The notes under the pieces: generated by a model
Told to the model about the DNA's origin: nothing
Database searches by the model: none
Seen by the model: only the letters and a program-made list of their open reading frames with translations
Origin: Amphiscolops sp. MND2022
Taxonomy: Eukaryota
NCBI GenBank assembly: GCA_964187785.1
Contig: OZ076409.1
Coordinates: 3,784,001 to 3,848,000, forward strand
Direction of reading: 5' to 3'
DNA length: 64,000 nucleotides
Translations under genes and position numbers: made by a program
Shown here: piece by piece, positions 35,638 to 63,557 of the stretch
How positions within the stretch are numbered: the first letter of the stretch is position 1
How the letters are laid out: the number at the start of each line of letters is the position of its first letter

Positions 35638-37959
35638 ATTTTATAATTAGGAATTAGGAAAGTTTAAAAAAATGGTGGATGGGGGGTTACAGAAGAGAAC
35701 TCGGCTATTGGAGCTGAAATTTTTTGAAAGTCGAAAACTTTCTCCTTAATTATGCAATGCAAGAATTCGCCTAGTAATAGAATGGTACGCTTGGCACAAT
35801 CTTGCATAATCATGGTATCCTTGGCAAGATCTTGGTAAGATGGTGGTAAGATCTTGGCAAGGCTAGCTAGTGATTTACCATGGTTCTTGGCAAGCGTACC
35901 ATGTCTTCGATCGCTGGGATAAGACTTCCCCTTTTTTAAGAGATAATTCGGCAGATCGTGGGGTTGTAAAAAACTTGCTGTTAGAAAAACACAGAAAAAA
36001 ACGTTTTCAGAGCTGAGAGAAAGAAAAACCTACTAACGTTAAGGAGAAGAGTTTCCGCTTTCGATATATGTGTATTTGAATAATCGTTCACACAACGCCG
36101 CGGGCTCAATTTCGTTCCACCCTCGTGGGTAAATACCTCTCAAATTACCTTTTTTCACTGTCAAAAATGCTAATGCTGCATTTTGCAATTCAATCACGCA
36201 ACAATTTCGTAACCAAGTGTGAACAAGTTACGCTTCACGCGAAGAGTTACATAACACTCACTTAGAACGAAGTGACAGCGTTTCTTTGGTTCTGTCAATT
36301 TGCACCGTGGTAAAAATATTCCGAAAGTTGAAAAATATTTTGTATGTATTTATTGAGGAAACGATGCATTAACTAACGCGTTTGGACAAATTAAAAGAGT
36401 AAAGAAGCTATAGACATTGGTGGTATTTCCTGTTTTGCTAAAAAATGAAACAAAATATTTCTGAAAGGGGAAACGGGAAAACAATATGAGAGAGAAAGCT
36501 GAGAAAATTTCATTCCCAGTGAAGCAAAAATTCTTCCTATAAGTTGGATGTGTAAAAACGAGACATACGAGTGATATTTCGCTTTTTTCTTAATACTGGA
36601 GGTTATTAGCTACAGAGTGGTTATATATAGATAAGATAAATATATAAATGGTAGTTATTTATATGTGCTTCAGATAGAGCTAACTTACCAACAGGAAACT
36701 GGCATTTTTGTAAAACTCTAATATAACGCAAACAAAGAAATACTGATTGGTAAGTAAAAAAAACGGAAAGCAACGGAAAATCTGTCGTTTTATCGAATCA
36801 ATGGTTAGAAACCTGATTAACGCCTGCTTGGAAAAATAGCTGAACAGTTTAAAGGAATGCTGAATTTATTGCATAACAAGACGGAAAAATGTTCCCAAAA
36901 ACGGGTGTCCGGTTTAGCAGCTATTCAACTGAGCTGAATGAGGGAGAGATGGGAAAAGTTATAGAAATGAAGTCACTACTAGACAAGGACTTAATTTGTT
37001 TTCCAATACATGTTTTGTTCTTTCTCCCTTTTTTCACAAGCTTATCCTGATCGGCTTTGAAGACTGGCGTAAAAACCACTGCAGTTGACACATTCACATT
37101 ACCTTGACTCTCGTCCCACAGAATCAACCTCCCCCTGCCTACACTTTTTTTTGAAAAGAGCGGGAAAACAGCACCCTTCAGGAGCTCAATTTTCCTCGTC
37201 TTTTCAATTTGTCTTCTCTCCCGGCGTGTTTGCCACCTAGGACATTCTGATGGGAATGAAAGTCAAACGAGAAGACAACCTACTGGCAATAATTTGTTGA
37301 TTGATGATCAGAAAAAATGAATGGAAAATGGAATTTGTTCATGAAATACAAAAAAAGAGGAAAAGCAGGAAAAGATAAGTGAAAAAAGAATCTTGCTAAC
37401 AGCAAAGACGCTTTTTTGTTCAAGTACGTTTCAAGATGAATTTAATTACATTTTGTTTTGTAAATTTGAAGTCAAGACGTTTTTGAGTTTTGATGATAAA
37501 AACCCAGACTTTGATGAAAGAAAATTCAGCTTGAAGACCTTGAAACACAAAATCCTGTCCAAAAATGTACCCAGCTTAAAAAAATCCCGGCTTTTTTGAT
37601 GTGAAATTGATCAAGAGAAGATGTCTTCTGGTTTTCAAGGCTATGTGTGGACGCTTTGTAGAATTACCCAAGGGTATTGATATGAACAGAAAGTTGTTAA
37701 TATTGTTTGTCGATTCAGTGTAACGACATGTAATTTTGACTCTGCAATAACAACTGCAAAAATTTCTGTTCCAACGCTAATACAATTAATTTTTATGAGA
37801 CAAACATGGTATTGGTACACAAAAGTGCGAACCCATGTATCAAAAACAGAGGCAAAGAACGTAAACCGTCTTTGCTTCTTGTGAACAAAACTGACGGTCA
37901 ACCGTATCTTTTCAATCAAAGGCGTGTCCCTAAGCATCTGATTGTACTCGCAATATATA

Positions 37960-38636
37960 TTTTTAGTCGGCGCTTCATGAAGTGAAACGCGACTATTATA
38001 GTGACTCTTTTTTTTTCTATCCACACGAACTGACCAAAATAGTTCTAAAAAAGTTCTACAAAATATTATTGCATCAAAATGCACTATTTGGTGTAGCGAA
38101 CTGAACCAAAAAGGTTTTTCCTGTTTTTCCGCGTAACATACCATACCGGGCGAGACCAAAGACTCCCCCCTTTCATTTTTTTTCGGCACTGCGAGACTTT
38201 TTTCTCGAAAAACAAAATTTTCCCCAAAGGGTCCCCCCTGCATTTTTTTGATGTTTTGCGACCGAATGGATATTGAAAAACCACAAAGGTCCCCCTTTCA
38301 GTTTTTTTCGGCATTGTCAGATTTTTCCCGAAAATAAAAATTTTTGTTTTCTTCAATTTTTTCATGTTTTGCGACAGAATGGATGTTGAAAAACCACAAA
38401 GGGTCCCCCCTTTCAGTTTTTTGGCATTGTTAGACTTTAGCGCGCCAGGGGCTCGCCCTAGCGAGCCCCGGTGCGCCACTCGGTCCATTTTTTTGAGTAT
38501 GTAATTTTTTCGAAAATTTTTTTTTCAAAAAATTTCGATTTTCGAGTACTGTAAAAGAGTACTTGACACCTGGAAGTCTTTTTGAGATTTTTGAGCCTTG
38601 GATATGGCGCCGACTTGGGCCCGTCCCGCCTTTTTT
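37960..38636 (+). mobile_element. Helentron-type non-autonomous element
   Basis: 5' tttttagtcggcgctt ... 3' ggcgccgacttgggcccgtcccgcctttt. Confidence 0.7.
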
Positions 38637-38659: not shown

Positions 38660-39853
38660 CCTCTATTGTCATTTATGAGTAAAGTGAGGTTCGAGCGATG
38701 TCATGAATTCTTCATGGCCATAATCTGAAACAGATCTTATCAAGAGGATCATGGTTTTCCTAATCCCCAATCAGCGTGAAAACATTTACAACTATTGACG
38801 AAGGTATTGCGATACAAGACTGGTTGACCAAAATTCTATCAGTGGGGTTTTTTAAGACTATCCCGTAATCGTTTACAAATTATCGCAAGATCTCAAATTC
38901 TTGAGAAACTGCAAACAACATCATTGTTTCTTCCTCAGCTGCTGATATTACCACCGTTGTCTGTAACTTAGAACGTTAATTAGAATAATAGTTCCTGCTT
39001 CTGAGTTTAAAAAGAAGCAAAAACATCTGGTGACTGCATGTTATCAAACCCTCTTAACTAATCAGCATCACTAGTCAACATTACATCAGTTTCCTTCAGT
39101 TTGTGGCATTTAAGTACCTCGAAAAGAGTTTTCATTATAACCAAGGTTTCCGGCCCGGATTTTGAACCTACTGCTCTGAGAGGAAAACTTCATCAGGACT
39201 TTGCGTTGTAATTAAATCAACTAATCTTTTCGCGAAAATAACAATTACTAAACTTCTTTTGTTCTCGAATGACTTCATTAGGAATGCACGACCCCTCGAA
39301 TTTTTGTTTTTCAGTAACAGGCGTTAAAAATCAATTGGCATCCTTCATTCGAAAACTTTCAAGTCCTTATTTGATGTAATTTTGATGGAAATATTCCAGA
39401 GTTGCTCTTTCATGTCTACTTCACATACCTAGAAGCTAATTCAAGTCTTCCGCGTGACTGATACAGAGTTTTTTGCAAGTCTTTTCTTTAACCCTTCGCA
39501 GACGTCAACGTCGTCGCTACATAAAACCAATTCATCTACCCAACTTGCGACGAAGTCCTTATGACCGTTTCGTTCACTAAAGATAAAACATGGTTCATTT
39601 GGGCTCGGCTTGAACTGAATGCTAGGCAAAAAGTCACTTTTGCTAATCAAAAAATGTAATGAACGAGTTGCCCACAGTTAGTTCCAATCCATGAAGTGAT
39701 TTTTTAAAGTCTACATACATAGTTTTACCAGTTTACATTTTTCTTGACTAATCCGGATGACTGATATAAAACAAATACTTCTGCGATGCCTGCTTTCAAG
39801 AAGGTAGTTGTAGTTTTCAAGTGTTCCAAATTCATTTCGTTTTGAACAGCCAA
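38660..39853 (-). pseudogene. Ancient Ty1/Copia RT-RNaseH remnant (continues at 54659-54800, interrupted by the Gypsy element)
   Basis: Broken frames: LAVQNEMNLEHL..TTFLKAGI, YVCRL, EPCFIF...FVASWVDELVL, SDAD; the far side reads PVKVLTVRVLLRLA. Confidence 0.7.
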
Positions 39854-41374
39854 TGTCGCGGCCACAGCGTTGCGATGGGTCCGGTGTGCACCAGTAAGAA
39901 AACAAACAACGCTTGTTAAAAACTTCCAAAACCCAAGGACTCATTTGCAAGTCATGTAGTTTGTTTGTTTTGTAAATATTTGTTGTAATCAGGGTCATTT
40001 AGTTGATTTATTTTGTAAAACTGATGTCTTAAAATGATTTGCCAAACCTTAAGAGGATTTAATGATGTTTTTAATTATTCCTGATGATCCTAATGCAGTG
40101 CTAATAGTTCATTTTAATTAAGCAGTACCAATTGTATACGACATTGTGCGTTTTGAGTGCTAATGAGTATGCGGTACTATGCGCATATGCATCTTTCTGA
40201 TTTTCACTATGCGTCACTATGCGGTTTGAACAGTGACATTTACTCGACACTATGCATCTTTCTAACTTTCATTATACGTCACTATGCGGTTTGAACAGTG
40301 ACATTTACTCGACACTATGCATTTTTCATTATACGTCATCCTGCGGTCTGAGGAACAATGAGTGCTCGGTACTATACGTTTTTCGATATGCTTGCTTTAA
40401 TATGAAGGATTAACTTTGCATTTCCATATACAGTAGTATAAGTCCATGATATATCATTGTTTAACACCTTTCTAGGGTATTATAAACCTCGTTATCATTT
40501 CTGAATGTCATGGAAGGTAACTCATGAGATATAAATAGGATGACGACATTCTGACGAAGTGCTATTATTAGTTTTTCCTAAGAATGATGCTTGTAAAATT
40601 GCGTGTCATCTTTTGTAATTTTGTACTTTCTTGGGGAAAAAAGAGCTAACACAACTGATATAACTTTCTTCAGAACCAGTTTGTTCTCTGATAACGATTA
40701 CAATCTTTGTGCTACATTTTGGGATCTTTGAACATTTCAAATTGATTTCCTTTGAATATTTGCCTTCAATTCAAATTCTTGACCCTGCAAAACAATCATT
40801 TTCTCTTGAGCGAAAATGGGCAATAAGAGAAGTAGAAGGTCTAGAAGACTAGAAACTCCTTCCCCTAGCAGAGAAGAAGGTGTTGAAACTCCAAACCCAG
40901 GTAATATGACTTTAACTAATTCCAACTTAGTTGACCAAGAAAACTTAGGTCCCAATATCTTGGAGAATCAAATAACTGAACCCAGCGTAATTAGCAATGA
41001 AATACAAGTTTGGACACAAGAAATGGAAAAGAGAAACAATGACAGAATAGAGAAAATGAGGGAGGAGATTGATAATAAATTCGATGCAATCTTAAGAGAA
41101 ATCAAAACTAGTAAAAATGCATCTACAATCACAAACCCAAGATCAGAATCTAATGAAACACAAAACAATCAGCCGTCGGGATCCAGAAATAGGTCTATAG
41201 GAGTTCGCGCATCAGAAAATGAAAACTCTGATTCTGAAAATGAAGATAATCATCCCATCAGAGCATCGAACATGCATGAATTAAGAGACCCAGCAAGACC
41301 CTTTTGCCAAAATAGATTTGAACTAGATGAAACATTAGTTTCAAATGAAGACTCTGAGGAGGAGGATTATCACA
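39854..41374 (+). repeat. 5' LTR (1521 bp)
   Basis: Direct repeat of 53133-54653; TGTCGC...TATCACA; TATA-like TATAAATA near 40530. Confidence 0.95.
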
Positions 41375-44300
41375 TGGTGACAGGAGCTAACCCAGACCTC
41401 AATATTCACCACGATTCACCTATTAAAAATCATGTCACTATCAAAACTTCTTGCAATGATCAAAAACAACCCCTTCTAAATGAAGACCTAGCTGAACACC
41501 TACAATTTGACAAAGAACGCAACTTGTCATACCTACCAATTTCAACATCCTTGACATTGAAGCGCAAACGACATATATACTACATTCCAATGGACTTCCA
41601 AAACCTCACACTTGATGGTCTTATTGACACAGGAGCTCTCACAAGTGCAATCTCCGAACAAGACCTCTATAAAATCAAATTGCTCGCAAACGATGCGATA
41701 AAAGAAACTGGTCCTCCACCAAACTTTCAAATTATGGTGGCAAATGGACAACTAGAAGTCCCCATTGGTACAATATTACTAGAGTTCGAAGTCGCAGACT
41801 TCATGTTAAAGGAAAACTTCATCATCATGAAAACTCTACCAAACCCGCTCATCGGATTGTGTTTCCTTCGCCGAAACAATGCAATTTTCGATGTCACACA
41901 AGGAATCTTAACCTTTCCTTACCTCTCAATGCAACTGAAACCCGATACCCAAACAGCAATACGGCAAGCAACACCATTGTTTGCAGAAAATACCTACACA
42001 CTCAGGCCAGGCGAAACACTCGCTATAGCAAGCAAAATGCCTCACCTGATGGACCATAATGCAACCGGAATAGTCACTCCATCACAACAATTTGAAAACC
42101 ACGATAGTATTTTTATTACAGCATCACTTAGCACAGTTAATAATAATGCTATCGGCTACCAGATCATCATTTTTTCAGAATTGCCATATACAATAACCAC
42201 TGACACCCATTTAGCGGATTTCAAAATTCTGACCCCAGAACAAATCAAACACATCCAACCAGTAGACCCAGCAGTACTATCGTTTATGATACAACATGAA
42301 GAAACCACCGAAGTCTACATCAACGAACTACTCAAAGTACCACAACCAAATTCTGAACAAGAATCGTACTGGTTTCCTACCCCAGACGACCCAGGCGATC
42401 CCGCAACATATACTCCAATACAACAACGTATATACAATGAACTTCTTGAGTTAAAAGAACTCGAAAAACTGAATCCACATGATAATGAAACATCCAGGAA
42501 AACATTCCTCTCAAATTTCGACTGGACAGATACAACACTTAGTTCAGAAGAACGACAAGAGATTGAAGAGATTCTGGTCGAATTCCACGACATTTTCGCC
42601 AGACATCGCTTTGATATCGGTATAAACCGCGAATTCAAAGTCAAATTAACACCCAACGACGACAGACCAGCTTACAACCAGAGTCTGCCAACTCCAATCA
42701 ACCTCAAAGATGACATCACAGTAGAACTTGCGCTTCTACACAAGTACGGTATAATCACAACTCTACCGTTTTCCAAATATGCAAGCCCGATTTTTGCACA
42801 ACGCAAACCAAACGGGCGCCTTAGACTCCTAGTTGACCTCCGGAAAATCAATAATCTTATCACTGAAGATTACGCCAATAATAACCACCCGGTAAGCACC
42901 CTATCTGATGCAGCCCAACACATGGCAGGAAAAAAGCTTTTCTGCAAACTGGATTGCTCCCAGGCTTACCACTGCCTCCAAATGGCCGACTACCAATCTA
43001 TCCAAATGCTCGCGTTTAACTTTGCAAGCAGAACATTTGCTTATCGACGCCTTGCCCAGGGTCTCAGTCGATCTCTCTCCGCATTTTCCAGCTTCATGAG
43101 AGAATACCTAGACAGAGCAATTAAAGCAGATCAATGTGCCCAATATGTCGATGATATCGGCATAGCAGCAAACGACACAAAACAATTGTGTATAAACATC
43201 AAAAAAACTGTTTTTGAATGCATCCGGAACGCCGGACTGAAACTCTCCATGTCGAAATGTCATTTCGGAGTCAAACAAGTCGACTTTTTGGGACGCACAA
43301 TCACACCAGATGGAGTTGCCCCTCAAGCCGACAAAGTGAAAGATTTTTTGGCAAAACTCAAATTCCCAAAATCAAAAAAGGCACTTCAAAGGTATATCGG
43401 ATTCTTGAATTATTACCGAAACTATATACCTCGCCTTTCAGAACGACTCACCCCGTTTTTCAAACTCCTCAAAGAAACCTCCAAATTTTATGTCCCTACA
43501 AACTTGGTCGAAGACTTTACAAACCTCAATCAACTTTTGGAAAATTCTTGCCAACTCGCGCTGAAACAACCCTTGAAAGACAAACAACTCATAGTCATGT
43601 CCGATGCAAGCTTCACAGCTGCAGGATATGCCATCATGATTGAAGACGATCCCAACCAGAAGCTTCAATCCAAACGAAAAACCTACGCACCCATTGCGTT
43701 TGGATCAAAAACGTTCAATCCAACACAAACGAAAATGTCAATTTATGCAAAAGAATTCCTCTCAATATATTTTGCATTCGTAGAGTTTGGACACCTCATG
43801 TGGGGGAGTACCTACCCTGTCATCGTGTTCACGGATAATCGGTCTGTAACCCGGTTTTTTCAAACGAAAATGATTCCTCCAGCGCTTTGGAATGCATGCG
43901 ATTATGTACTACAATACAATTTTGTAATCGCCCATGTAGCTGGATCGATGAACACAGCCGCCGATTTCTTATCTAGAACCGAAAGTAACCCAACCGAAAA
44001 GCTCGAAATGACAATTCGCAACGATATTCACACAAAAGCAATTGAAGTGAATATACAATCAACTGGAATTGTCGAAGAAGAACAAATTTACATCCTTCCT
44101 GATGAAGAAATCGATGAAAATCAACTATGGGAAGAAAAACAAAACACTCGCAATCAAGCACAAAACGAAACTCACAATGACCCAGAGAACGACGTCTCTG
44201 AATTACAGCAATTTCACAAACCCACATCCGGATTGATCTCCTGCTCCTCTGGACACTTCAAGGACAATGCGAGGAAACGCCTTGAACAGAACAATGACAT

Positions 44301-46050
44301 AGTCCTTCGAAACCTGAGAGCCAAAATAGAAGGCGAACCGTTTGATGAAAACGAATTAGCTTCCGATTTCAGATATCAACACTACTTACAAAACATAACA
44401 CGAATCGAGATTAAACACGAAGTTCTCACACGCAAATACTATACAGATACAGGAATGATCTCGCATTATCAAATCCTCTTACCAATCCAACTTCTTGAAG
44501 AACTACTTCAAGCCCTCCATGGACATAACTCAAACCATCCAGGAATTACCAAGATGATTCAAGAAACACGTCAAAAATATTACTACCCATGTATGGCCAA
44601 ATACATAAAGAAATGGGTCAGTAATTGTCAGATTTGTATACAAACAAAACGTATCAACAATGATCTCCTCAGAACCGAACTCCTTAATTGTCCCGAATGG
44701 GACCTTGGACCGGAAGACATCTTACAGATGGATATTTTGCCAAACCTCCCCCCAAGCGGAGGCTACGATCACATCATCACAGCAATAGATGTCTTCTCAA
44801 GGTATTTGTTTGCTTATCCTGTGACTCGAATTACCGCAACAGCAGTTTCAAAAGTCATAATGGATATCTTATGCAAACACACCTACCTTCCAACAACTAT
44901 AATCACGGATCTAGGCACTCAATTCAACGCACAAGTCACTCATGAAATTGCGGCAGTGCTTGGAATCGAAATGAAACATGCCACAATGAAACATGCACAA
45001 ACCATAGGACTCTTAGAAAGAACCCATGCCTCAGTTAAAACACACCTAAAAGCCGCCACAGGCGAATTCAGGAACAACTGGCACAAATATCTTCCTCTAG
45101 CAGTCCTTAATCATAACACAACATACCATGCATCACTCGGTTGTGAACCCTCACGAGTTTTCCATGGCCGCATACCACACAATATCCTTGACTACAAACT
45201 TGGATACAATCCAAATCCGAGGTATCAACCACAAACTGACATTGCAGAAGAAATTCAAAAGCGCATGAGAACACTTTTAGACCAAACCAAAAAGATAATC
45301 ATGCAATCTTACCTAAAATACAAGGCCTACTACGATAGAAAAGCAAAAGCAGCCCCGTTGGAGACAACAGATTACTGCTATATTCTTAATCCAAAAGCCG
45401 ATACACAAGCAACGAAAATACCATTCCGAGAATTCAGATGGTGTGGACCTTATAAAGTTGAAAAAGTGCTCCCTAACAATAACTACATTGTGAGGAGACT
45501 TGGCACAAATAAAACCCAACTACTACATCGGATTCGTTTGCGGAAATTCACACCGCAGGCCCCTTTAGCAGACATTTTTGTTCGCGAAACCGACTGGCAA
45601 AAAGATGATCAAATGACTATAGCAAATGATGATCTATATGCCCAATCATGGAACACGAATTTTGGAGCAAATCCATTTGATGACATTCCCTCAGATGCAA
45701 TACACAATACTGAGGATACCGAATATGTCCCAATTCAAATACCCGACAATAGCCGCCCACCCTCCCCAGTATCTTCAAAAAATAGCGGGGGGAGCCCAGT
45801 GGATCAGACCACTGAACCAGATCAAAATCACGGAAATCATGCTGATGAAATCCCACAACAATCAAATGATGATAATAATACCCAAAAAACCCGAAAAGAT
45901 GTAAATAACGCAACAAACAATGATAATCAAAAAACCCCAGAAAACTCCCAAAATACCCCATTGCAAGAAGAACCCATAAATACCCGTGGTGAAAAATACA
46001 ACCTACGTCCTAACCCCAACCCAAATTACTCTGACACTTATAGATACTAG
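40816..46050 (+). CDS. pol: Gypsy polyprotein (1744 aa): LTR-encoded N-terminus, protease, RT, RNase H, integrase with GPY/F motif
   Basis: LIDTGA, LVDLRKIN, KLDCSQAY, YVDD, MSDAS, FTDNRS, H..H..CQIC, MDIL/TDLGTQF/LERTH, WCGPYKV; no stops. Confidence 0.95.
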   Translation: MGNKRSRRSRRLETPSPSREEGVETPNPGNMTLTNSNLVDQENLGPNILENQITEPSVISNEIQVWTQEMEKRNNDRIEKMREEIDNKFDAILREIKTSKNASTITNPRSESNETQNNQPSGSRNRSIGVRASENENSDSENEDNHPIRASNMHELRDPARPFCQNRFELDETLVSNEDSEEEDYHMVTGANPDLNIHHDSPIKNHVTIKTSCNDQKQPLLNEDLAEHLQFDKERNLSYLPISTSLTLKRKRHIYYIPMDFQNLTLDGLIDTGALTSAISEQDLYKIKLLANDAIKETGPPPNFQIMVANGQLEVPIGTILLEFEVADFMLKENFIIMKTLPNPLIGLCFLRRNNAIFDVTQGILTFPYLSMQLKPDTQTAIRQATPLFAENTYTLRPGETLAIASKMPHLMDHNATGIVTPSQQFENHDSIFITASLSTVNNNAIGYQIIIFSELPYTITTDTHLADFKILTPEQIKHIQPVDPAVLSFMIQHEETTEVYINELLKVPQPNSEQESYWFPTPDDPGDPATYTPIQQRIYNELLELKELEKLNPHDNETSRKTFLSNFDWTDTTLSSEERQEIEEILVEFHDIFARHRFDIGINREFKVKLTPNDDRPAYNQSLPTPINLKDDITVELALLHKYGIITTLPFSKYASPIFAQRKPNGRLRLLVDLRKINNLITEDYANNNHPVSTLSDAAQHMAGKKLFCKLDCSQAYHCLQMADYQSIQMLAFNFASRTFAYRRLAQGLSRSLSAFSSFMREYLDRAIKADQCAQYVDDIGIAANDTKQLCINIKKTVFECIRNAGLKLSMSKCHFGVKQVDFLGRTITPDGVAPQADKVKDFLAKLKFPKSKKALQRYIGFLNYYRNYIPRLSERLTPFFKLLKETSKFYVPTNLVEDFTNLNQLLENSCQLALKQPLKDKQLIVMSDASFTAAGYAIMIEDDPNQKLQSKRKTYAPIAFGSKTFNPTQTKMSIYAKEFLSIYFAFVEFGHLMWGSTYPVIVFTDNRSVTRFFQTKMIPPALWNACDYVLQYNFVIAHVAGSMNTAADFLSRTESNPTEKLEMTIRNDIHTKAIEVNIQSTGIVEEEQIYILPDEEIDENQLWEEKQNTRNQAQNETHNDPENDVSELQQFHKPTSGLISCSSGHFKDNARKRLEQNNDIVLRNLRAKIEGEPFDENELASDFRYQHYLQNITRIEIKHEVLTRKYYTDTGMISHYQILLPIQLLEELLQALHGHNSNHPGITKMIQETRQKYYYPCMAKYIKKWVSNCQICIQTKRINNDLLRTELLNCPEWDLGPEDILQMDILPNLPPSGGYDHIITAIDVFSRYLFAYPVTRITATAVSKVIMDILCKHTYLPTTIITDLGTQFNAQVTHEIAAVLGIEMKHATMKHAQTIGLLERTHASVKTHLKAATGEFRNNWHKYLPLAVLNHNTTYHASLGCEPSRVFHGRIPHNILDYKLGYNPNPRYQPQTDIAEEIQKRMRTLLDQTKKIIMQSYLKYKAYYDRKAKAAPLETTDYCYILNPKADTQATKIPFREFRWCGPYKVEKVLPNNNYIVRRLGTNKTQLLHRIRLRKFTPQAPLADIFVRETDWQKDDQMTIANDDLYAQSWNTNFGANPFDDIPSDAIHNTEDTEYVPIQIPDNSRPPSPVSSKNSGGSPVDQTTEPDQNHGNHADEIPQQSNDDNNTQKTRKDVNNATNNDNQKTPENSQNTPLQEEPINTRGEKYNLRPNPNPNYSDTYRY

Positions 46051-46268
46051 AAACAACTGACAATCCCTGACTCATTACTAGTACTCAGAAAACAAATACA
46101 GAAGAAACTCTCTTTTTTATCCTTCCTTTTTCAAATCAGCACTACGAGTGCGTTTCTTCATCCTGTTCTCCGATTCCTTTAACAAATAAATACACAGGAT
46201 ACAGAGTAACTCAACAACCAGAAAACTAAAAGAAGATTATAAATACAACAAGATAATGCAGACAACAG

Positions 46269-49200
46269 TCAGTTTTTCTTGCTTTTCGGAGCTTTAGCAA
46301 CCACTCTCTTTGAAGTGCCCTCTTGGGTCGACTCTGAGCAACGACTAAGACTAACATTGAGTGTACCCAATGAAGGATCAGGGGATGGGGAACTATGTAC
46401 ACTGCTGCGGCGACTCACACTTGGAGTTGTTGAAGTAGAGGAAACGGTAGGTTTCTCAGCACGTAGCACAGCTTGTCGGTAACCAGTTTCCAATTTACCT
46501 TGGAGAGAAGTTTTCCGGGCATTGCTTCCCTTCAGGAAATTCCAAACCGAGAACTTTTTGTCCAACAACAAATCAGTCCCACGTCCCAACAGGCGAAAAG
46601 CACGGCTGATCGCTTTGGAATTTCGAAATAAGCTGGAGACGTGTGGCACAGTCTGATATGCTACCTGAAGACTAAACACACAAGATTCAAACGTATGTTT
46701 ATCCGACTCAAGATCTGGCATAGGTACCTTGAATGATGGCGGTATTTCCACGAATGGAACTAAACAAAGACACGAATGTTTGAATAGTCGCATCAACTCG
46801 GGTCTACACTGGATTTCATAATGTTCAACGACAAACTGAATCCAATCATCATGCTCTGGTACGTGGCTTGTCCTCAGCTTGGTTACGAAGGAACGATACT
46901 GGCTTATCTGCTTCACCTTGTCACTAGAAGAGAATAGTCCGGTAGAAACAAAATGTGAAGACAACTTTTCAATCGCATCAACATACACGTCTTCTGGGCT
47001 CTCGAGCATCACCGAGGAGTCAAAAGCAGAGAGTCCCCGCAACAACTTTGACTTTACAATCCCGTGACCCATCAACTGTTTGCAATAAGCCTTGCAGAAA
47101 CTCACTGACTGGTCAATAAATTTGCTTGGCCGAGGGAGTTTACTTGAATACACCAAACGGTGAAAATCCTCATTCAAGACGAAGTCGTCTGCTGTTTTAA
47201 ACGGCAAATTAGTTGAATCCAGGTCCAAATTAAGATAAGAATCCCATTCCGAGATATTTCCCAAAATGCTGTCAGGAAGAATGTTCTGCATCTGACTGTA
47301 GATAAAAACCGCAAATTGGTTGTATATGCGGAACCCTCCATCAAGTCGTTTCTGTATGTCCGAAAACGCCGAAGTATCTAAAACACACAAAAATCATCTA
47401 TTATAGAAACCACGCATGCCTTCATGAAGAAGAGAACTAATCACGCATAGTACACGCTTTTGATAAGCTTGATTAAACACATCATATAGCTCAATGTATA
47501 AACACCAGGGCTATACGGCTTTACGCGGTTCAGAGAACAATGAATACTCGACACTATGTTGAGTAGGAGATATTGACTATGCGGCACTATGCGGAATGTG
47601 TAGTAGTGACTATGCGTCACTATGCGGAATGTGTAGTAGTGACTATGCGTCACTATGCGGAATGTATAGTAGTGACTATGCGTCACTATGCGGAACGAGT
47701 AGTAGTGATTATACGTCACTATGCGGAATCAGCAATGCAGCTGGATTTGGGAGTTCTGAGCAAATACGATTGGTCATACGCAATTATGCGGATTGAGAAC
47801 TGATGATTACTCGTGATTATTCAGAAGAAAACAAAAAGCACGTGTCACTTATGATGAGTTAAATGAATGACAATCCTGATGTTCGAAGTTTTGGAATGAG
47901 ATGGTACTTATAGTACATTACTCCAAAAAGAGGAAAACAACGTAACGAAAGATGAAACCGCTGTTATAGTATAAAGATAAATTGACTAACAATGGTCAAG
48001 GACACATCTGATAATGAACAGACGGGCCAGATAAGCTGTGTCTAGACGAAAACACTCGTCCAGCGTATTGGGCTGAAAGGGAAAAGATTAAGAAATGGAT
48101 TCAGATTACAATGGAAGGAGCTGGGATAATAATACCTACCTCTCTCATATGGAATCGATAGATAGGAAGGCGTGCAACTTGTTCTAGGTGATCCTGCACG
48201 TGATTCCAGTTGTTGGAAAGCTGCTCAATCAAAGAAGAAGCTTCAGAAAGGGAATAGCTCAAGTTTGTCACACACTAAACAAAATAGGGGAAGATGTGCA
48301 AAACATCACAATGGAAAAGAAAAAAAACCAAAGTTGAAAACCTACTTTGTGCAGAAGGGGTAATTTCTCCAGCCAATCTCTGTCTAGCGCAGTCCGCAAT
48401 TTCATCAGTAAATAATCCAAGATAGAACGGAAATCGTGTCGTTCTATGACCTGAGCGGTAGGGCCTGCTAATGTTCGCTCAAATTCGTTCGGTCCAAATG
48501 GGTTGACAGTCGAAGGGGGCTTTAATCCGGGCAAACAAGACGATAGACAATCATTTAATTTGTCACTGAATCCAATGAGGGATACACAATTTGGGAATGT
48601 TTCGAACAGACTGAGAAAGGAAGCCACGAGAGAAAGGACTTTCCTTGGTAATAACATTCCCCGAGGGGCGCCCCCTATGCACACTCGATACAGCACATTC
48701 TCGGCCCAAAAGCAAAGAATAACGTATGTGGCAACAGGAGTATGTTGTATGGCCAATGAATAGTACCCCGAAGAAGATATAGACCGTACACAATAGTCCA
48801 TGAGTTCTCGGAACATGTAGACTATGATACCCTGCAAACAAAGAAAGTGTTAAGGTATTGGAAAATGGGGAAACCTTCAACTTATAGTGTAACTTCAAGG
48901 TAATTGAAACTTTTAACGAAGGAGAAAGAATATGGTTAAATCATTGTGTGTTAAAAAATTCACAAAGAAACTTACGAAAAGACGTTCATTGCTCCAGTTC
49001 TGATACGATAGCCGATCACTTGCTGTAAGTCTGACCAACTCGTCATACATTCCGGTCAAACTGGCGACGTTACCTCCGTGCCTTAACCCAAATTCCAGAA
49101 TGTTTATCTGCGAGAATATCTTCTCAGTTGGGGTTGTGGAAGCACTAAAATCGGGTACTGAATCTTGTCCTACTAGAGGTCGGTACGTATCCAATTGAGG

Positions 49201-50679
49201 AGGAATTGGGTAGGTGTCCTTCGCCTTCTTTTTGGCTTCCTGTAGTGAAATTCCAAGCAATTCATGTTCGTCTTTGTCGTAAAGGGGCATTCCTGGAATC
49301 TCCATGCGGATTCGGTGTTCCCTTACTAGGTGAGATTCGGACCTGTAATGGGATATCAGTTCCAGACTCCCACGACTCATCAACGATAATTCAACACGGC
49401 ACACCCTACACCACCACTTGTAAGGTGATAACTCTTGATCCAGTGGACATGTGGCAGAGAATTTCAAAACTGGGTGTCTTTTAAACATACTACCAGTTAA
49501 GGAGTATCTAGGGCGGCGTCGTTTCCCCCGTACTTCGGGGAGATTACGCTCTGAGTAAGTCGGCGCAGTTCTTGAAGTAGATTGGACAAGTGCTTCTTCT
49601 TGGCTTGATGTAGTCAATAAAGCAGATTGCGGTACATCATCCACCAAAGTAAGTGCCATAGTGTCTCCACATCCAGTCTCTTCTCCGGTGATGAAGGCTT
49701 GTGGGATCCTCCCAAAGAAATTGTGGAGAAATAAGACCTCCTGTCGAGTTACACTAACATTGGGGAACTCTGATCTGGGAATGTTACCCAAGCCTTCCGT
49801 GTCATGACCAATTGTTTGTCCTTGGTCATTAGCCGTGCTAAGAGAAACCGTGGTTTCGGGTATCTGCCCGGTAGTGAATCCTGTTGCACCATCCTCACTA
49901 GGAGTGACGTACTGTTCAAACTGAAGAGAATGTATTTGAGAATTACCCTGCGTGATGAAATCATCAAGTACCCCTTGAGGGAACGTCGTCATTGGCTCAT
50001 TCATAGCTTTCGTTGGGGTAACGTTCACAAATGGCGGCGAATTACTTCGTGAAGCTAAATCCCCTTTTTGACTTGGGTTACCCTGGGAAGTAACTCCAGG
50101 AGGCTCTGTGGATGTATGTCCACTCGGTGGCTCACCTGCTACTTCTTCATTGATCTGCAAAGTTGGGGTATTGGCGGTATCCACTTCCTCTGTAGCCTTA
50201 GAAGTCTGTGGAGTCACAACGTTCAAAGATGTGTAGACTTTGGCAGGAGAGTTGTTTGAAGTGGTTTGGACGTTTTGGGACGATCCTTGTTCAACTGAAA
50301 CAATTGATCTGTTGATTAACAAAAGAACAGATTTCACAAGCAATAACCGTTCTTAACTGCCTTGAACCGGACGCGGGGACAGGAAATAAAATTGGAACGG
50401 AAGTTGTTTAAAAATTGGAAGCGGAAACGTTTCAAAAAATTTGAACTTGACAAAGATAATAATCTTGTCATTTTCTTTTTGCTAGCCTGGCCAGCTTTGC
50501 AAATCAACCAAATTCAAAACAAATCAAAATGAAACAGAATTAAAACGAAATACGTTGAACTTACGGGATGACGTCTCAGGCGGCGGATCACTGTGCCAGA
50601 AGTCGTCACGTTGCAGAGGATCATAACTCTTCCGGGATCTTCTTTTCCCTCCGGGGCTTCCCTCTTGTGGTGAATCCAT
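46269..50679 (-). CDS. Six-exon antisense gene, about 1081 aa, zinc-finger / hAT-transposase-like protein
   Basis: Exons 50679-50565, 50294-48976, 48831-48346, 48274-48140, 48072-47991 and 47377-46269; all five introns GT..AG with matching phases (1,0,0,0,1); 3246 nt open; RGKRRRPR NLS-like motif and CRVC-x16-H-x5-H zinc finger. Confidence 0.85.
47572..47730 (+). repeat. 33-bp tandem repeat (about 5 copies) in intron 5 of the antisense gene
   Basis: gactatgcgtcactatgcggaatgtgtagtagt; TATGCG starts at 47578, 47611 and onward with period 33. Confidence 0.9.
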
Positions 50680-51120
50680 TCTTTTTTACAGAACCAGGAA
50701 GTAATTCAGGAAAATTCTGATGCAAGCTCAGGGTATTTGTTCCAGAAGTGAGCGAGGAGAAAATACAATAGATCGGAGTAAGGAAATTGAAAACAGATAA
50801 AAGGGGAACTAAAGATGAAGAATCCAAGATTTGGAAGATTGTGTTTAATATACTAGAACTTTAACTGAACAGACTAAATGAACTGGTAAGAAACTTGAAG
50901 ATTCAAAAGAAACAGTAAAAGGCGTGGCGTAACGTTAATGCAATAGACAAAGGCAAAAGAGCAAGTGAAACAATTGTGCGCAAATATGCGTAGAGAATAC
51001 TGCAATATGATTGGCTGTTCAAATGTCAATTACGTCTGCCAGCGTAATTGATTGACTCATCTGACTTCTGCCAACAACGTTGGTATACATATATGCTGAA
51101 TGGAATGAATTAGAAAGCGA

Positions 51121-51270
51121 GAGTATGCGGCAGTATGCGGATCTACCACCAACGACCACTCGACAATATGCGTATTACTGATTTAAATTATGCGGCAGTA
51201 TGCGGATCTACCAATGATGGATATACGGCAGTATGCGGATTGAGCATTGACGTATACTCGACATTTAGCG
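51121..51270 (+). promoter_or_regulatory. TATGCGGCAGTATGCGG motif cluster in the divergent intergenic region
   Basis: Three copies of the doublet motif plus actcgaca motifs, shared with the LTR (40168-40345) and intron arrays; regulatory role inferred. Confidence 0.5.
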
Positions 51271-52270
51271 GTTTTCGCTGTATGCACGACAGAGATGAAT
51301 TAACACCGTAGACCAACAAGAATGAGCAAATGGAGTGATATTACGTAATGGAACTGAAGAAACTGTGTGTTTACCACAACTGAAAGTTGAGTGGCAATAT
51401 TGATATACTGTATACGTGCTTAGTTACCCTCTTTAATGACGTTTAGCCTGTGATACCAATGCTCATTTGGAACCAATATGTATGTAATAATTTGAACTGT
51501 TGGCGTTTTCTGAAACCCATAAATTATTTACCAAGAGATACTGGAATTCACCCGGAACATTAATTAACTGTACTTGCATTTTAAATGCAGGACTAACATT
51601 ATTGGGTGTCTTTCCTAATGATAAAATTCAACTCACTAACGGACCTTAGATTAGATTGGAACACGTTTATTAACATCCTTTTCCTTTTATAAAATAGTCA
51701 TGTAAAATCAAATAAACTGATTCTGAATTACTTTATTGAATATTTTCATGAAAGTATTTTGTTTTCAGCATCCCTGATATCAAGTCAAATTTGTTTATGT
51801 ACGATTTAAACACTGGTGGAAGGTTAAGAAGGGTGATGATAAAAGGAAATCAGTTGGAGTGCTAAACGTGTTACCTTTTATGGAAGTTGTTTATGACCAA
51901 TTGTAAAAGGAACTCGTGATATGAGTCTAGGTGGAAACCCCATATAAGGGTGTTTAGGAACCTAAAATCATGACTCTCAATTTTTCCGCGGGTTTTCCGC
52001 TGAAAACGAAAAGTGCGAGAAACTCCATCATCATATGGTCCATATTAAACTGTGATTCAGTTGCTTTCAATTTCGAACTCTATTTCTGTTCATCTATAAA
52101 TTTTCAACTAAAACCTGAAAAATGGACTCACTGCAATTTAATCTCGATGAGGATCTGGGCTACTCACCCATCTCCCCTGACGTGATAGACATCTCCAGTG
52201 AATCTGGGGAAGAGTTCATTGTTGAACCTGGCAACATTGCCCAGCTAGACGAAAAGTTCAGGTCAATACA

Positions 52271-53176
52271 ATGGGATCGAACATCATGACAGCTTTTGTG
52301 GGCTCTGCAACTGCTTCTTTGTTCCCCCCTTCAAACTACGTGGGACAACAAGAATCCATCAATACTGCAGGAACCCACATCGAAAGGGAAATCATGGAGT
52401 TGATAGAGGAGGGCCCTTCCTCTTCTCCAGCATCTCCGCTGTCTTTCATCGATTCAGAATTCGAAGGACCGGGTACTTCTCCAGTAGCAATTGCCGCAGA
52501 ACCCAGAGCACAGCTTAATAATTATGGTCGGCCAACTGCAGCAATACTGCCCACACCAAGGGTCCCATTGCAACCGCCAAATGAAACTGTTAGACCAGTG
52601 CCGACTTACCCTTCAAACTATGTGCAGAATGTCCCTAATTCTCACCAAGCACAGACAGTGGACACAAGCACAGAAGGGGCTACTAACGTACCAACATATG
52701 AACTACAAGGAATTTATCCGCAAGCCGCATTCATCCCAGAAGAATTAACACACCCTGTTACGAATGACATTACACCAGTAGTGATACATCTGCCCCCTAG
52801 AAACATGGGAATTGTCCCCGCCAACTTCAATGGTCAATTCCACCAAGTGGTCCAAGCTGGATTTCCATTCAACATTCTACATAGTACTAACATCCTTATG
52901 ATACCAGGCAATGAGAGACAAAATTTCAGATTGTTCCCAACAGTTATGCCAAACGTCTCCGGATATTGTGACTGGTGTGGCCGTACCTTTGATCAAGTCG
53001 CACTGGAAACATTGGGGGACTATCTTGGCGCTACCGCTTACAACGAGGAAACAGTCAGGGACCGTGGGGTGCGTTCTAGAGCCTTCATAGATGGTTTTGA
53101 AGCAGCGTTGTTTATCTTCAAAAATGCAGGACTGTCGCGGCCACAGCGTTGCGATGGGTCCGGTGTGCACCAGTAA
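52271..53176 (+). CDS. Accessory sense ORF (301 aa), P/T-rich, C-terminal CxxC; ends inside the 3' LTR
   Basis: Open frame crossing the PPT/LTR boundary at 53133; TATA-like CCCATATAAGGG near 51940. Confidence 0.7.
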   Translation: MGSNIMTAFVGSATASLFPPSNYVGQQESINTAGTHIEREIMELIEEGPSSSPASPLSFIDSEFEGPGTSPVAIAAEPRAQLNNYGRPTAAILPTPRVPLQPPNETVRPVPTYPSNYVQNVPNSHQAQTVDTSTEGATNVPTYELQGIYPQAAFIPEELTHPVTNDITPVVIHLPPRNMGIVPANFNGQFHQVVQAGFPFNILHSTNILMIPGNERQNFRLFPTVMPNVSGYCDWCGRTFDQVALETLGDYLGATAYNEETVRDRGVRSRAFIDGFEAALFIFKNAGLSRPQRCDGSGVHQ

Positions 53177-54653
53177 GAAAACAAACAACGCTTGTTAAAA
53201 ACTTCCAAAACCCAAGGACTCATTTGCAAGTCATGTAGTTTGTTTGTTTTGTAAATATTTGTTGTAATCAGGGTCATTTAGTTGATTTATTTTGTAAAAC
53301 TGATGTCTTAAAATGATTTGCCAAACCTTAAGAGGATTTAATGATGTTTTTAATTATTCCTGATGATCCTAATGCAGTGCTAATAGTTCATTTTAATTAA
53401 GCAGTACCAATTGTATACGACATTGTGCGTTTTGAGTGCTAATGAGTATGCGGTACTATGCGCATATGCATCTTTCTGATTTTCACTATGCGTCACTATG
53501 CGGTTTGAACAGTGACATTTACTCGACACTATGCATCTTTCTAACTTTCATTATACGTCACTATGCGGTTTGAACAGTGACATTTACTCGACACTATGCA
53601 TTTTTCATTATACGTCATCCTGCGGTCTGAGGAACAATGAGTGCTCGGTACTATACGTTTTTCGCTATGCTTGCTTTAATATGAAGGATTAACTTTGCAT
53701 TTCCATATACAGTAGTATAAGTCCATGATATATCATTGTTTAACACCTTTCTAGGGTATTATAAACCTCGTTATCTTTTCTGAATGTCATGGAAGGTAAC
53801 TCATGAGATATAAATAGGATGACGACATTCTGACGAAGTGCTATTATTAGTTTTTCCTAAGAATGATGCTTGTAAAATTGCGTGTCATCTTTTGTAATTT
53901 TGTACTTTCTTGGGGAAAAAAGAGCTAACACAACTGATATATCTTTCTTCAGAACCAGTTTGTTCTCTGATAACGATTACAATCTTTGTGCTACATTTTG
54001 GGATCTTTGAACATTTCAAATTGATTTCCTTTGAATATTTGCCTTCAATTCAAATTCTTGACCCTGCAAAACAATCATTTTCTCTTGAGCGAAAATGGGC
54101 AATAAGAGAAGTAGAAGGTCTAGAAGACTAGAAACTCCTTCCCCTAGCAGAGAAGAAGGTGTTGAAACTCCAAACCCAGGTAATATGACTTTAACTAATT
54201 CTAACTTAGTTGACCAAGAAAACTTAGGTCCCAATATCTTGGAGAATCAAATAACTGAACCCAGCGTAATTAGCAATGAAATACAAGTTTGGACACAAGA
54301 AATGGAAAAGAGAAACAATGACAGAATAGAGAAAATGAGGGAGGAGATTGATAATAAATTCGATGCAATCTTAAGAGAAATCAAAACTAGTAAAAATGCA
54401 TCTACAATCACAAACCCAAGATCAGAATCTAATGAAACACAAAACAATCAGCCGTCGGGATCCAGAAATAGGTCTATAGGAGTTCGCGCATCAGAAAATG
54501 AAAACTCTGATTCTGAAAATGAAGATAATCATCCCATCAGAGCATCGAACATGCATGAATTAAGAGACCCAGCAAGACCCTTTTGCCAAAATAGATTTGA
54601 ACTAGATGAAACATTAGTTTCAAATGAAGACTCTGAGGAGGAGGATTATCACA
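53133..54653 (+). repeat. 3' LTR (1521 bp)
   Basis: Direct repeat of the 5' LTR, followed by TSD GCCAA. Confidence 0.95.
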
Positions 54654-55019
54654 GCCAATCTCAGCAAAACGCGAACTGTTAGCACTTTCACGGGCCGACT
54701 ATGCGTTTGAACACCGCCAACTTATTACCCTTTTGAAATCTGTTGATCTGTATCTTGCTTTGTGCTTTTAATTTCCCCTCTTCACTTCCGCCGAATCACT
54801 GAAGTTGAAACGTACTGAAATAGTAAAAACTCTACGTTCAGACAACTCAGTAATTGCTTGCTAACAAACCCGAAATATGTTGATTTCTTGAAAGGTTTTG
54901 AGTGAAGTAGGACAAAAATGTTGATGCTATCAAAACAAAACCTTGTTGCTTTTTTATTTTTCATACATGTCGAATTTTGATACAAGATGAGGTCGAGTTC
55001 TCCTCACAAGATAGTGTCC

Positions 55020-55219: not shown

Positions 55220-55368
55220 TTCAGTGCCGCTGCCTTTAGCAGCTGTCTAATTTGCAGGAATTGAATGTCTACGGCACCTATTATTTTTTGTCAAATCTCA
55301 CCACAAATAGGTAAATCGCTTATGGCGCTACGTATCAGTATGCATCAGCCCAATCTACGTCAACTGGA

Positions 55369-55803
55369 AACAAGCCGAGAACGGCCCAAGTCGTCGCCAT
55401 ATCTATGGCTCACAATTTTTGAAATTCGGGAAAAAATAGACAATGCTATACGAGAAATGGAAACGTTATATCTGTACTTTGAAACGTTACATTGCAACTT
55501 TGAAAACGATATATCCGAACATTGAAAACGTTACATCCGAATTTTGAAAACGTTGTTTCCGAACTTTGACAAAGTTATATCCTAACTTTGAAAACGTTTT
55601 ATCCGAACTTCGAAAACGTTACATCCGAACTTCAACTTTGAACACGTTAGATCCGACTTTTGAAACGTTATATTCGAACTAAACTATATCGGCTAAAAAG
55701 TTGAACAAATGAGCAAAAAAGTGGACCATTCAGAGCGAAGTGAAAAAAACTACCCACTGTAATAGCCGGACTTTTTCCCTAATGGAAGAGGCACCAACTA
55801 AAA
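55369..55803 (-). mobile_element. Helentron-type element with internal ~21-bp tandem repeats
   Basis: aacaagccgagaacggcccaagtcgtcgcc ... ggcaccaactaaaa; internal ttgaaaacgttacatccgaac repeats at about 55455-55680. Confidence 0.65.
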
Positions 55804-57637: not shown

Positions 57638-57839
57638 CCGTGTTTTATCAGCCCACTTAGGCTTAAACCGTGTATTATCAGCCCACTTAGGCTCAACCGT
57701 GTATTATCAGCCCACTTAGACTCAACCGTGTATTATCAGCCCACTTAGGCTCAACCGTGTATTATCAGCCCACTTAGGCTCAACCGTGTATTATCAGCCC
57801 ACTTAGGCTCAACCGTGTATTATCAGCCCACTTAGGCTC
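57638..57839. repeat. 29-bp minisatellite, 7 copies
   Basis: ccgtgtattatcagcccacttaggctcaa repeated head to tail without spacers. Confidence 0.95.
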
Positions 57840-63543: not shown

Positions 63544-63557
63544 TCTCTGACCATACG

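Follow-up and report, generated by a model that had tools for sequence, protein, structure and literature searches.

An LTR retrotransposon with an antisense gene resembling a hAT-class transposase and a clustered 33-bp unit that may be its binding site

In the VANDAL elements of Arabidopsis, an element-encoded accessory protein, VANC, acts with a short motif that is described as tandemly repeated in introns and in intergenic and terminal noncoding regions (PMC5735166). VANDAL elements are DNA transposons of the Mutator group, and MAIN is a relative of VANC (PMC13547354). TnpA of Spm/CACTA is a noncatalytic, transposase-derived regulator that arose within its own DNA-transposon family, binds the termini, and is reported to require dense motif clusters (10.64898/2026.08.24.746577). 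Binding by the BED domain of the hAT transposase Hermes is described as cooperative and phase dependent, with pairs on a quasi-palindrome (PMC10368747). Extra antisense genes and tandem arrays are common in LTR retrotransposons and mostly unexplained. Retand (Tat) Gypsy elements of plants have a long region between pol and the 3′ LTR, antisense ORFs, tandem arrays, and some recently active gag-less copies; their antisense TRP28 ORFs, which have no similarity to other known transposons, are proposed to be DNA binding, the function of the arrays is unexplained, and the survey leaves origin and function open (PMC11963269). Plant mobile domains, too, occur in Gypsy elements (PMC5418596).

We analyzed a 64-kb window (the whole stretch of DNA studied) containing an LTR retrotransposon that can be compared with these systems. 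Like VANDAL, it encodes an accessory protein and has a short motif tandemly amplified in intronic, intergenic, and terminal noncoding DNA, but its carrier is an LTR element and its protein resembles a hAT transposase. Divergence is rapid in VANC and its motifs, whereas the finger here is strongly conserved; binding and demethylation have been demonstrated for VANC, whereas the present system is described from sequence and predicted folds. Like TnpA, the protein would be a noncatalytic, transposase-derived regulator acting through dense motif clusters, here with candidate binding. Unlike with TnpA, a class II-to-class I gene transfer would apply, and the places that hold clusters are the LTR, one intron, and an internal promoter. 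The long pol-to-3′ LTR region, antisense gene, arrays, and gag-less appearance recall Retand, but this antisense gene, with six exons, would derive from a nearly complete transposase, the unit of the array is found again in the LTR, and Pfam gave no match to TRP28 (PF04195) or PMD on exons 2, 3, and 6. With hAT transposases (Hermes, PMC10368747) and ZBED-type factors, the predicted protein shares its domain order, namely a finger, a helical domain, an RNase-H-like core, and a helical C-terminal part, and with hAT elements it shares phased short repeats as candidate sites. It differs from hAT in that the catalytic positions are not kept, there are no terminal inverted repeats and no 8-bp duplication, and the candidate sites are directly paired; unlike ZBED-type domesticated factors, it is borne by a retrotransposon and not domesticated by the host. 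By analogy, the antisense protein may work like VANC or TnpA but falls outside their families: no Pfam family indicating VANC/PMD or TnpA homology was found on any exon searched, and the predicted folds indicate a DDE transposase. Among titles and abstract openings, a scope outside which most subscription papers and the repeat databases lie, we found no LTR element carrying a hAT-derived gene.

The extra gene here appears to be recognizably descended from a DNA transposase. The element also presents a precise candidate target, a pair of half-sites with 10-bp and 33-bp spacings at three locations, and a retrotransposon-encoded sequence-specific regulator becomes directly testable. If this is true, another mobile element, too, can domesticate a transposase, and the element would supply a compact new protein-and-site pair.

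The retroelement and its antisense gene

The carrier is a recently inserted Gypsy-type LTR retrotransposon of 14.8 kb (Table 1). Paired TG...CA LTRs, a short target-site duplication, and the pol domain order protease-RT-RNase H-integrase found with Pfam fit Ty3/Gypsy. We find the LTRs, intron 5, and a TATA-like box past the LTR cluster as an earlier note on this DNA had described them. Only 81 codons separate the LTR end from the protease motif, and Pfam, which would miss a divergent gag, matched no capsid gene before the protease or in ORF2; this copy looks gag-less. None of the 32 other ORFs of the window had a Pfam match, and there was no DNA-transposase ORF among them for comparison.

Table 1. 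Features of the retrotransposon, in window coordinates
Feature	Position	Strand	Remarks
Target-site duplication, left copy, 5 bp	39849..39853	+	Identical 5 bases on both flanks
5′ LTR, 1521 bp, TG...CA	39854..41374	+	4 mismatches vs 3′ LTR
Cluster 1, presumptive U3, 8 units	40135..40395	+	Steps 33, 40, 33, 32, 33, 24, 33
TATA-like box of LTR (inferred)	40530..40536	+	Sequence only; second candidate at 40481
pol, single ORF	40816..46050	+	Start inside 5′ LTR; protease, RT, RNase H, integrase
Putative primer-binding site	41375..41392	+	Begins TGG immediately after LTR
Exon 6	46269..47377	-	Helical region resembling hAT C-terminal part; 209 homologues
Intron 5, 613 bp	47378..47990	-	GT...AG
Cluster 2, intron 5, 9 units	47512..47840	+	Steps 33 (six times), 65, 33
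Exon 5	47991..48072	-	Splice sites inferred; frame open
Exon 4	48140..48274	-	Homologue P0338 continues into matching peptide
Exon 3	48346..48831	-	Predicted RNase-H-like DDE-transposase core without first catalytic Asp; 123 homologues
Exon 2	48976..50294	-	Low-complexity N-terminal part, basic KRRRP stretch, C2H2 finger, helical domain; 131 homologues
Finger C-x2-C-x16-H-x5-H	49315..49410	-	C334, C337, H354, H360, additional H365 of 1081-aa model
Exon 1 with start codon (inferred from sequence alone)	50565..50679	-	
Cluster 3, between antisense gene and ORF2	50975..51287	+	5 units at 51124-51287, steps 33, 32, 33, 33; weak outlier at 50975
55-codon ORF	52122..52289	+	Overlaps ORF2 start
ORF2, ~301 aa, Pro/Thr-rich	52271..53176	+	Stop within 3′ LTR; no Pfam family
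3′ LTR	53133..54653	+	Contains copy of cluster 1 (53414-53674)
Target-site duplication, right copy, 5 bp	54654..54658	+	Matches left copy

The antisense gene forms an open model of six GT-AG exons encoding 1081 aa with zero stops. Homologue ORFs terminate at the same splice donors as its exons, and the gene is an accessory protein gene kept in a large multicopy family. Relatives of exon 6 with greater length were sought among 3892 candidates and none was found, which is weak evidence. Searches of IMG/VR with the finger alignment, the RT region, and the composite motif confirmed no related locus, and neither did searches of the JGI metagenomes with the finger and exon-6 alignments. A cluster look-up of 10 homologues returned no informative name. 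In profile searches of the sequences of solved structures, the finger and exon 3 each had 0 matches, and the 3 rows returned for exon 6 looked like chance.

Transposase-like domains and the zinc finger

Exon 3 was predicted to fold as an RNase-H core (pLDDT 83). The model matched ISCth4 (Z 7.4, rmsd 3.1, 101 residues) and, at Z 6.1 (rmsd 3.4, 105 residues; Z 6.0 to 6.3 across comparisons), Hermes, with every Z below 8 and with kinases and integrases level with Hermes. In this model an RNase-H-like DDE core is present, and the fold alone has no power to single out hAT among the DDE families. We placed the putative catalytic positions in exon 3 from secondary structure together with the D-D-E motifs of hAT transposases. 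At the end of strand 1, the first catalytic position, 65 of 89 homologues have Gln and 2 have Asp; the end of strand 4 has Asp in 26/89, and the putative third position has Pro in 21 of 32 homologues and Glu in 1. We infer that the D-D-E triad is absent and catalysis lost.

A transposase-like gene in opposite orientation with one cluster upstream of it would also be expected if the retroelement contained a nested hAT DNA transposon with the clusters as its subterminal repeats. This arrangement is extremely improbable in our judgment, given that the two LTRs and an intron hold the other clusters and that 87 of the 89 homologues lack the first catalytic Asp. A search around the gene yielded 177 inverted-end candidates, and 0 of them were flanked by an 8-bp duplication with at least 7 matching positions; we therefore rejected this nesting.

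Exon 6 scored 0.92 in the ESM Atlas, where 23 of 30 matches carried Dimer_Tnp_hAT (PF05699) and 149 to 150 features were shared. Pfam HMMs detected no hAT family in the window's exons or in 30 exon-6 homologues. The analogy with hAT that had been drawn earlier gains support from the antisense protein as a whole, which, as modeled, looks like a disarmed hAT-class transposase, and from the placement of the motif clusters, noncoding and either beside one of two promoters or intronic. The family of the finger differs by method (ZBED1 versus U1/matrin-like).

The C2H2 pattern of the finger is conserved among homologues, with a conservation of 0.81 versus 0.60 for the following domain (79/93 homologues); a few subfamilies, such as those of P0053, P0066, and P0117, have a different finger. 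Foldseek ranked ZBED1 first, at an E value of 1.2. VIA put RNA-binding U1/matrin-like fingers on top, those of the TUT4, SF3a, and U1C type (TUT4, Z 4.6; ZBED2, Z 2.6). By these comparisons, the predicted finger is no closer in fold to BED fingers than to RNA-binding ones. In the Atlas, the finger scored 0.76 to 0.78 to BED-type clusters, which we treat as a lead only; zf-BED (Pfam) was found in only 1 of 34 finger homologues (E 0.2), and a wide fold search with the finger model returned no Z of at least 5.

Three clusters of a 33-bp unit

Ten exact TATGCG-N4-TATGCG doublets occur in the window, all on the + strand (positions 40168, 40208, 47578, 47611, 47644, 47677, 51124, 51189, 53447, and 53487), against a mean of 0.01 in shuffled sequence; 0 of 100 shuffles reached 10. 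When two mismatches were allowed, TATRCG-N4-TATGCGG had 22 matches in the window, and all 22 fall within the element, on its + strand. The doublet clusters that the earlier note described are therefore real, and its remark that none were noticed beyond the element is borne out for the 64-kb window, the scope covered. Positions 40168 and 40208 are exact doublets, but those at 40273, 47710, and 51222 are inexact copies, with the variant TATACG-N4-TATGCG.

TATGCGG is the sole 7-mer found at least twice in each of the three noncoding regions. All 15 of its copies in these clusters are on the + strand, versus 1 copy in about 49 kb of flank; on the same strand it occurs once in exon 6 and 0 times in pol, exons 1 to 5, introns 1 to 4, and ORF2. 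The sequence ACTCGACA, which had been said to accompany the doublet, occurs 8 times versus 1.7 expected, and 7 of the 8 copies are on the + strand within clusters. ACTCGACA is no separate motif: independently defined, it lies in 4 of 5 cases exactly 24 nt past the nearest instance of TATGCGG and is a doublet variant one step downstream. One cluster precedes the TATA-like box of the LTR by 150 to 400 bp, one precedes the inferred start of the antisense gene by 300 to 600 bp, and one is in intron 5.

Across all three clusters, 16 of 19 steps have a pitch of 32 to 33 bp, and 40 of the 49 CG dinucleotides fall at the two half-site positions. A 33-bp tandem array at 47574-47729 (93% matches) forms part of cluster 2. 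It had been proposed that the motif rather than the surrounding unit is conserved. The spacers of full doublets contradict this in part, matching between clusters at 6.88 of 16 positions versus 4.24 in shuffles, with 0 of 5000 shuffles reaching 6.88; the clusters have in common a 33-bp unit with related spacers, beyond the hexamer alone. Common descent of the unit would also explain its spread, and duplication alone can explain both the spread and the common strand. The clusters might then be largely neutral, one 33-bp unit having been copied by template switching in reverse transcription and expanded by slippage, with the motif as the undecayed remainder. Such an origin would agree with the spacer homology, the single orientation of all copies, and the young intron array. 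It agrees poorly with the half-sites, which are much more alike across clusters than the spacers (0.75 versus 0.36, background 0.26, 96 pairs, where choosing units by their half-sites inflates the 0.75), with the near absence of indels seen in the regular pitch, with the restriction of CGs to two positions of the unit, and with copies that adjoin promoters. We regard neutrality as distinctly unlikely.

LTRs usually carry short enhancer repeats in tandem ahead of the TATA box. The clusters could be sites of a host transcription factor, an LTR enhancer cassette having been copied to the internal divergent promoter and to intron 5 for coexpression, while the antisense protein acts otherwise, for example in chromatin tethering or integration targeting. 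The cluster positions fit this equally well, and the half-site may have a core in common with the GCM site. However, TATGCGG is nearly missing from the host flank, the strict 10-bp and 33-bp register at three places would exceed the needs of most host factors, and the element itself encodes a conserved finger protein; we think a host factor unlikely.

The units could instead act in RNA, where they would tag genomic RNA of the + strand to be exported or packaged and would be bound by the finger of the antisense protein. CERV of Cer1, which serves genomic-RNA export (PMC10309623), is a precedent. The strict + strand polarity of the units and the RNA-binding fingers among the top VIA matches point the same way, as does the intron-5 cluster, which folds better than shuffles (z -2.84). 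The LTR cluster (z 0.42) and the promoter cluster (z -0.26) fold no better than shuffles, however, the remainder of the predicted protein has DNA-transposase architecture, and the 10- and 33-bp spacings would suit a DNA helix. Only a slim chance is left, in our view, for action in RNA. A common RNA structure of the clusters was rejected, as only 1 of 3 clusters beats shuffles.

A possible self-regulation system

By analogy with VANC and TnpA, the antisense protein may regulate the element by binding the 33-bp lattices of the LTR, of intron 5, and of the promoter of its own gene; we give this proposal an even chance of being right. A Gypsy-type LTR lineage would have captured a hAT-class DNA-transposase gene, whose product would have lost catalysis and been retained as an accessory DNA-binding regulator. 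Because the genomic RNA carries the gene in antisense, the introns would outlast reverse transcription. The most likely binding site of the protein would be the 33-bp unit, in which two half-sites, each containing CG, are 10 bp apart. In an oligomer, the fingers would contact both half-sites of a pair from one helix face, and the constant pitch would suit loading that is repeated and cooperative, like that of hAT transposases on phased subterminal repeats. The protein would either activate the LTR promoter or shield it and would exert feedback on the gene that encodes it, acting in cis and also in trans on gag-less copies. The analysis establishes the anatomy, the clusters and their pitch, the open gene model, the conservation in a family, and the transposase-like fold; from these we infer the loss of catalysis, the binding, the oligomer state, and the direction of regulation.

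Several lines of evidence argue for self-regulation by the antisense protein. On the DNA side they are the confinement of near-matches to one strand of the element and of TATGCGG nearly to the clusters, the regular pitch, the phasing of ACTCGACA, the CGs at half-sites, and the higher identity of half-sites than of spacers. On the protein side they are the open gene model, the homologues with the same donors, the finger conservation, the predicted RNase-H fold of exon 3, the hAT likeness of exon 6, and the missing first Asp. VANC, TnpA, and Hermes BED are its precedents. We counted against it that Hermes BED pairs take a quasi-palindrome and the candidate site here is a direct repeat, and that Pfam finds no hAT family, fold Z scores are below 8, and RNA-binding fingers are best in VIA. 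The proposal covers one element copy.

A wider version, which we hold to be doubtful, is that a class I element has domesticated a class II transposase and that a hAT-like oligomer coats the 33-bp lattice in both LTRs, its own promoter, and the intron, activating or shielding hundreds of copies in trans. If true, VANC/TnpA-like sequence-specific self-regulation would exist outside plants, through transfer between transposon classes and probably without CpG demethylation. The host flanks have a CpG observed/expected ratio of 1.03 to 1.11, that is, no CpG depletion and no sign of CpG methylation. The emphasis that the earlier note had placed on CpG thus finds no support in the flanks, and a demethylation version of the self-regulation model is weakened.

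Paired half-sites on a 33-bp lattice

We scanned the window for the direct repeat TATGCG-N4-TATGCG, whose half-sites lie 10 bp apart. Exact copies numbered 10, every one of them on the + strand, where 0.01 would be expected and none of 100 shuffles gave ten; this bears out the earlier note's proposal of a one-strand doublet. The proposed cluster locations (LTR, intron 5, internal promoter region) also stood, but positions 40273, 47710 and 51222 hold TATACG as a variant first half. With TATRCG-N4-TATGCGG and at most two mismatches, 22 of 22 matches in the window scan fell within one Gypsy-type element on the + strand; motif distribution was assessed within the window, and there the claimed confinement of the clusters to the element holds. 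An unbiased k-mer comparison of three regions, namely the LTR, intron 5 and the intergenic region inside the element, left TATGCGG as the sole 7-mer found at least twice in each, with 15 copies in these regions versus 1 in ~49 kb of flank, both strands counted. On the + strand, with the LTR counted once, 15 copies lie in the clusters and 1 in exon 6 of the antisense gene, and none was found in pol, exons 1 to 5, introns 1 to 4 or ORF2. The cluster positions are compatible with an enhancer cassette for a host factor, but flanks nearly free of the motif speak against this reading, which we consider unlikely.

A weight-matrix scan placed all three clusters on a single lattice, with steps between units of 33, 40, 33, 32, 33, 24 and 33 in the LTR, 33 six times, 65 and 33 in intron 5, and 33, 32, 33 and 33 in the promoter region. 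The short motif ACTCGACA does accompany the doublet as had been reported, but it is not a separate motif. It is a piece of a variant doublet, TACTCG-N4-TATG.., sitting at the next lattice position, exactly 24 nt downstream of TATGCGG in 4 of 5 cases and downstream of a one-mismatch variant in the fifth, and the unit carrying this variant is the last of every cluster. Across clusters (96 unit pairs, five near-identical units having been removed), half-site identity was 0.75, a value inflated by selection of units on the half-sites; the four central bases gave 0.49 and the 16-nt spacer 0.36, with a background of 0.26. Spacers of full doublets matched at 6.88 of 16 positions versus 4.24 in shuffles (40 pairs), and none of the 5000 shuffles was as high. 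Because the spacers match across clusters beyond shuffles, the clusters appear to descend from one 33-bp unit, of which the half-sites and pitch are best retained; the view that the motif rather than the unit is conserved is contradicted in part by the shared pitch and spacers. The clusters hold 49 CG dinucleotides, and 40 of these occupy the two half-site positions.

Neutral duplication would account for the common strand and homologous spacers but explains the fixed pitch and placement less well, and we regard it as rather unlikely. A signal acting at the RNA level agrees with the strand polarity and with the resemblance of the modeled zinc finger to RNA-binding fingers, and CERV offers a precedent (PMC10309623). 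However, folding beats shuffles in the intron cluster only (z -2.84 versus 0.42 and -0.26), and this explanation too is unlikely.

The antisense gene and its protein

The predicted gene has six exons and GT-AG introns and encodes 1081 aa with no stop, an open model that supports the earlier assignment of the 33-bp array to intron 5. Homologue ORFs share the donors of exons 2 and 3 as their end points, and one ORF continues into an exon-4-like peptide. Homologues formed 131 clusters for exon 2 (430 sequences in the best 120) and 123 for exon 3 (578 in the best 120), and exon 6 had 209 representatives at 50% identity. Among the matches listed, 20 contig sizes were common to exons 2 and 3, and all those listed for these two exons were unnamed ENA proteins. 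By these matches, the antisense gene is a member of a large multicopy family.

In the exon-2 product, a zinc finger of pattern C-x2-C-x16-H-x5-H is accompanied by a basic KRRRP stretch. Mean identity to the window copy was 0.81 in the finger and 0.60 in the following helical domain (79/93 homologues spanning both), and the finger's central eight residues were invariant in 69 of 94 rows. The finger family is uncertain. BED-type and SPIN-DOC-type clusters scored 0.76-0.78 in Atlas, which is no more than a lead; the top Foldseek match was ZBED1, with Hermes in fourth place, at E >1; and in VIA, TUT4 and spliceosomal fingers (Z at most 4.6) outranked ZBED2 (Z 2.6). The confidently predicted exon 3 fold (pLDDT 83) runs helix, three strands, helix, strand, helix, strand, helix. 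It matched ISCth4 transposase with Z 7.4 (rmsd 3.1, 101 residues), retroviral integrases and kinases with Z ~6.5 (~80 residues), and Hermes with Z 6.0-6.3 over at least 105 residues, leading helix included. In Atlas, exon 6 scored 0.92, and 23 of its 30 matches were clusters that carry the hAT dimerisation family; no Pfam HMM matched the window exon or 30 homologues of it. No single result is decisive. What speaks for a hAT-class origin is the domain order across the 1081 aa, with the finger first, then the helical domain, the RNase-H core and a C-terminal part resembling hAT.

In DDE transposases the first catalytic Asp stands at the end of strand 1. Here that position is Gln in 65 and Asp in 2 of 89 homologues, Asp stands at the end of strand 4 in 26 of the 89, and Pro fills the putative third position, assigned from a hAT motif, in 21 of 32. 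None of 177 candidate pairs of inverted ends around the gene had an 8-bp duplication. We read the gene as a disarmed transposase retained by selection rather than as a transposon inside the element, and a nested hAT element is barely credible.

Predicted binding and precedents

We predict, with about even confidence, that the antisense protein binds the doublet lattices and regulates the element. Because genomic RNA would carry the gene antisense, its introns would stay unspliced and survive copying. The protein would be produced from the internal promoter, enter the nucleus and bind paired half-sites one helical turn apart, and the 33-bp pitch would suit repeated cooperative loading. Relative to the TATA-like box of the LTR, the LTR cluster lies 150-400 bp upstream, and the promoter cluster is 300-600 bp upstream of the antisense-gene start; the protein would probably activate or shield the LTR promoter and feed back on the antisense gene. 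Demethylation is doubtful as a mechanism: the flanks are not depleted in CpG (observed/expected 1.03 at 1-39853 and 1.11 at 55220-64000), and values in the element, its clusters left aside, are lower at 0.6-0.9.

According to the cited papers, Hermes BED binds subterminal repeats cooperatively, with a 1-bp shift mattering and a palindromic pair (PMC10368747); VANC21 sites occupy introns and intergenic and terminal noncoding regions, a layout like that of our three clusters (PMC5735166); and TnpA requires dense motif clusters, likewise resembling the clustered sites here (10.64898/2026.08.24.746577). Retand elements of plants have antisense ORFs proposed to be DNA-binding, plus tandem arrays in the stretch from pol to the 3' LTR, all of unknown origin and function (PMC11963269). 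Plant mobile domains occur in other plant Gypsy elements (PMC5418596), and VANC has a structural relationship to MAIN (PMC13547354). The element lacks TRP28, plant-mobile-domain and VANC matches and so belongs to none of these groups, nor is it a hAT transposon. An LTR element with a hAT-derived gene was found neither in the literature covered, which took in few subscription papers and no repeat databases, nor in passages of a giant-transposon review (PMC6431247). An element-encoded regulator with clustered sites would be of a known kind; the carrier and donor would be new, judged from one copy and predicted binding.

Element anatomy and neighboring features

The 4 mismatches between the LTRs and the 5-bp target-site duplication indicate that the insertion is recent. 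The pol N terminus begins Met-Gly and is basic. The stretch from the LTR end to the protease motif (41375-41620) is only 81 codons long, and Pfam found no domain there, capsid or other. This young copy looks gag-less, though pol and the antisense gene are open, and would presumably need a helper. No doublet occurs in the BEL/Pao element.

Features of the element and its surroundings
Feature	Position	Strand	Description
Element	39854-54653	+	Two 1521-bp LTRs, TG...CA ends
pol ORF	start 40816, inside LTR	+	Protease, RT, RNase H, integrase in Gypsy order (Pfam); coding overlaps LTR at 40816-41374
AATAAA	46185-46190	+	135 nt past pol stop; could end the pol transcript ahead of the antisense gene
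Intron-5 unit	47574-47729		Partly self-complementary, RNA hairpins (z -2.84); other clusters differ
Acidic ORF	52122-52289		55 codons, overlaps ORF2 start; stop overlaps ORF2's second in-frame ATG
ORF2	stop inside 3' LTR (53133-53176)	+	~301 aa; no known domain (Pfam)
BEL/Pao LTR retrotransposon	~5643-14934		DUF1759, RT, Peptidase_A17, DUF5641; direct repeats 8992 bp apart
Dispersed inverted repeats	17552-20076, 35230-38632, 55369-55785		Contain short internal repeats; resemble miniature DNA transposons
Tandem duplications	22704-31218 (~4.6 kb), 33222-38523 (~2.9 kb)		Near-identical
Tandem array	55461-55680		22 bp, ~10 copies; unrelated to doublet
Tandem array	57638-57839		29 bp, ~7 copies, 97% matches; unrelated to doublet
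Second LTR element	61804-63998	-	Broken integrase region, unrelated-looking
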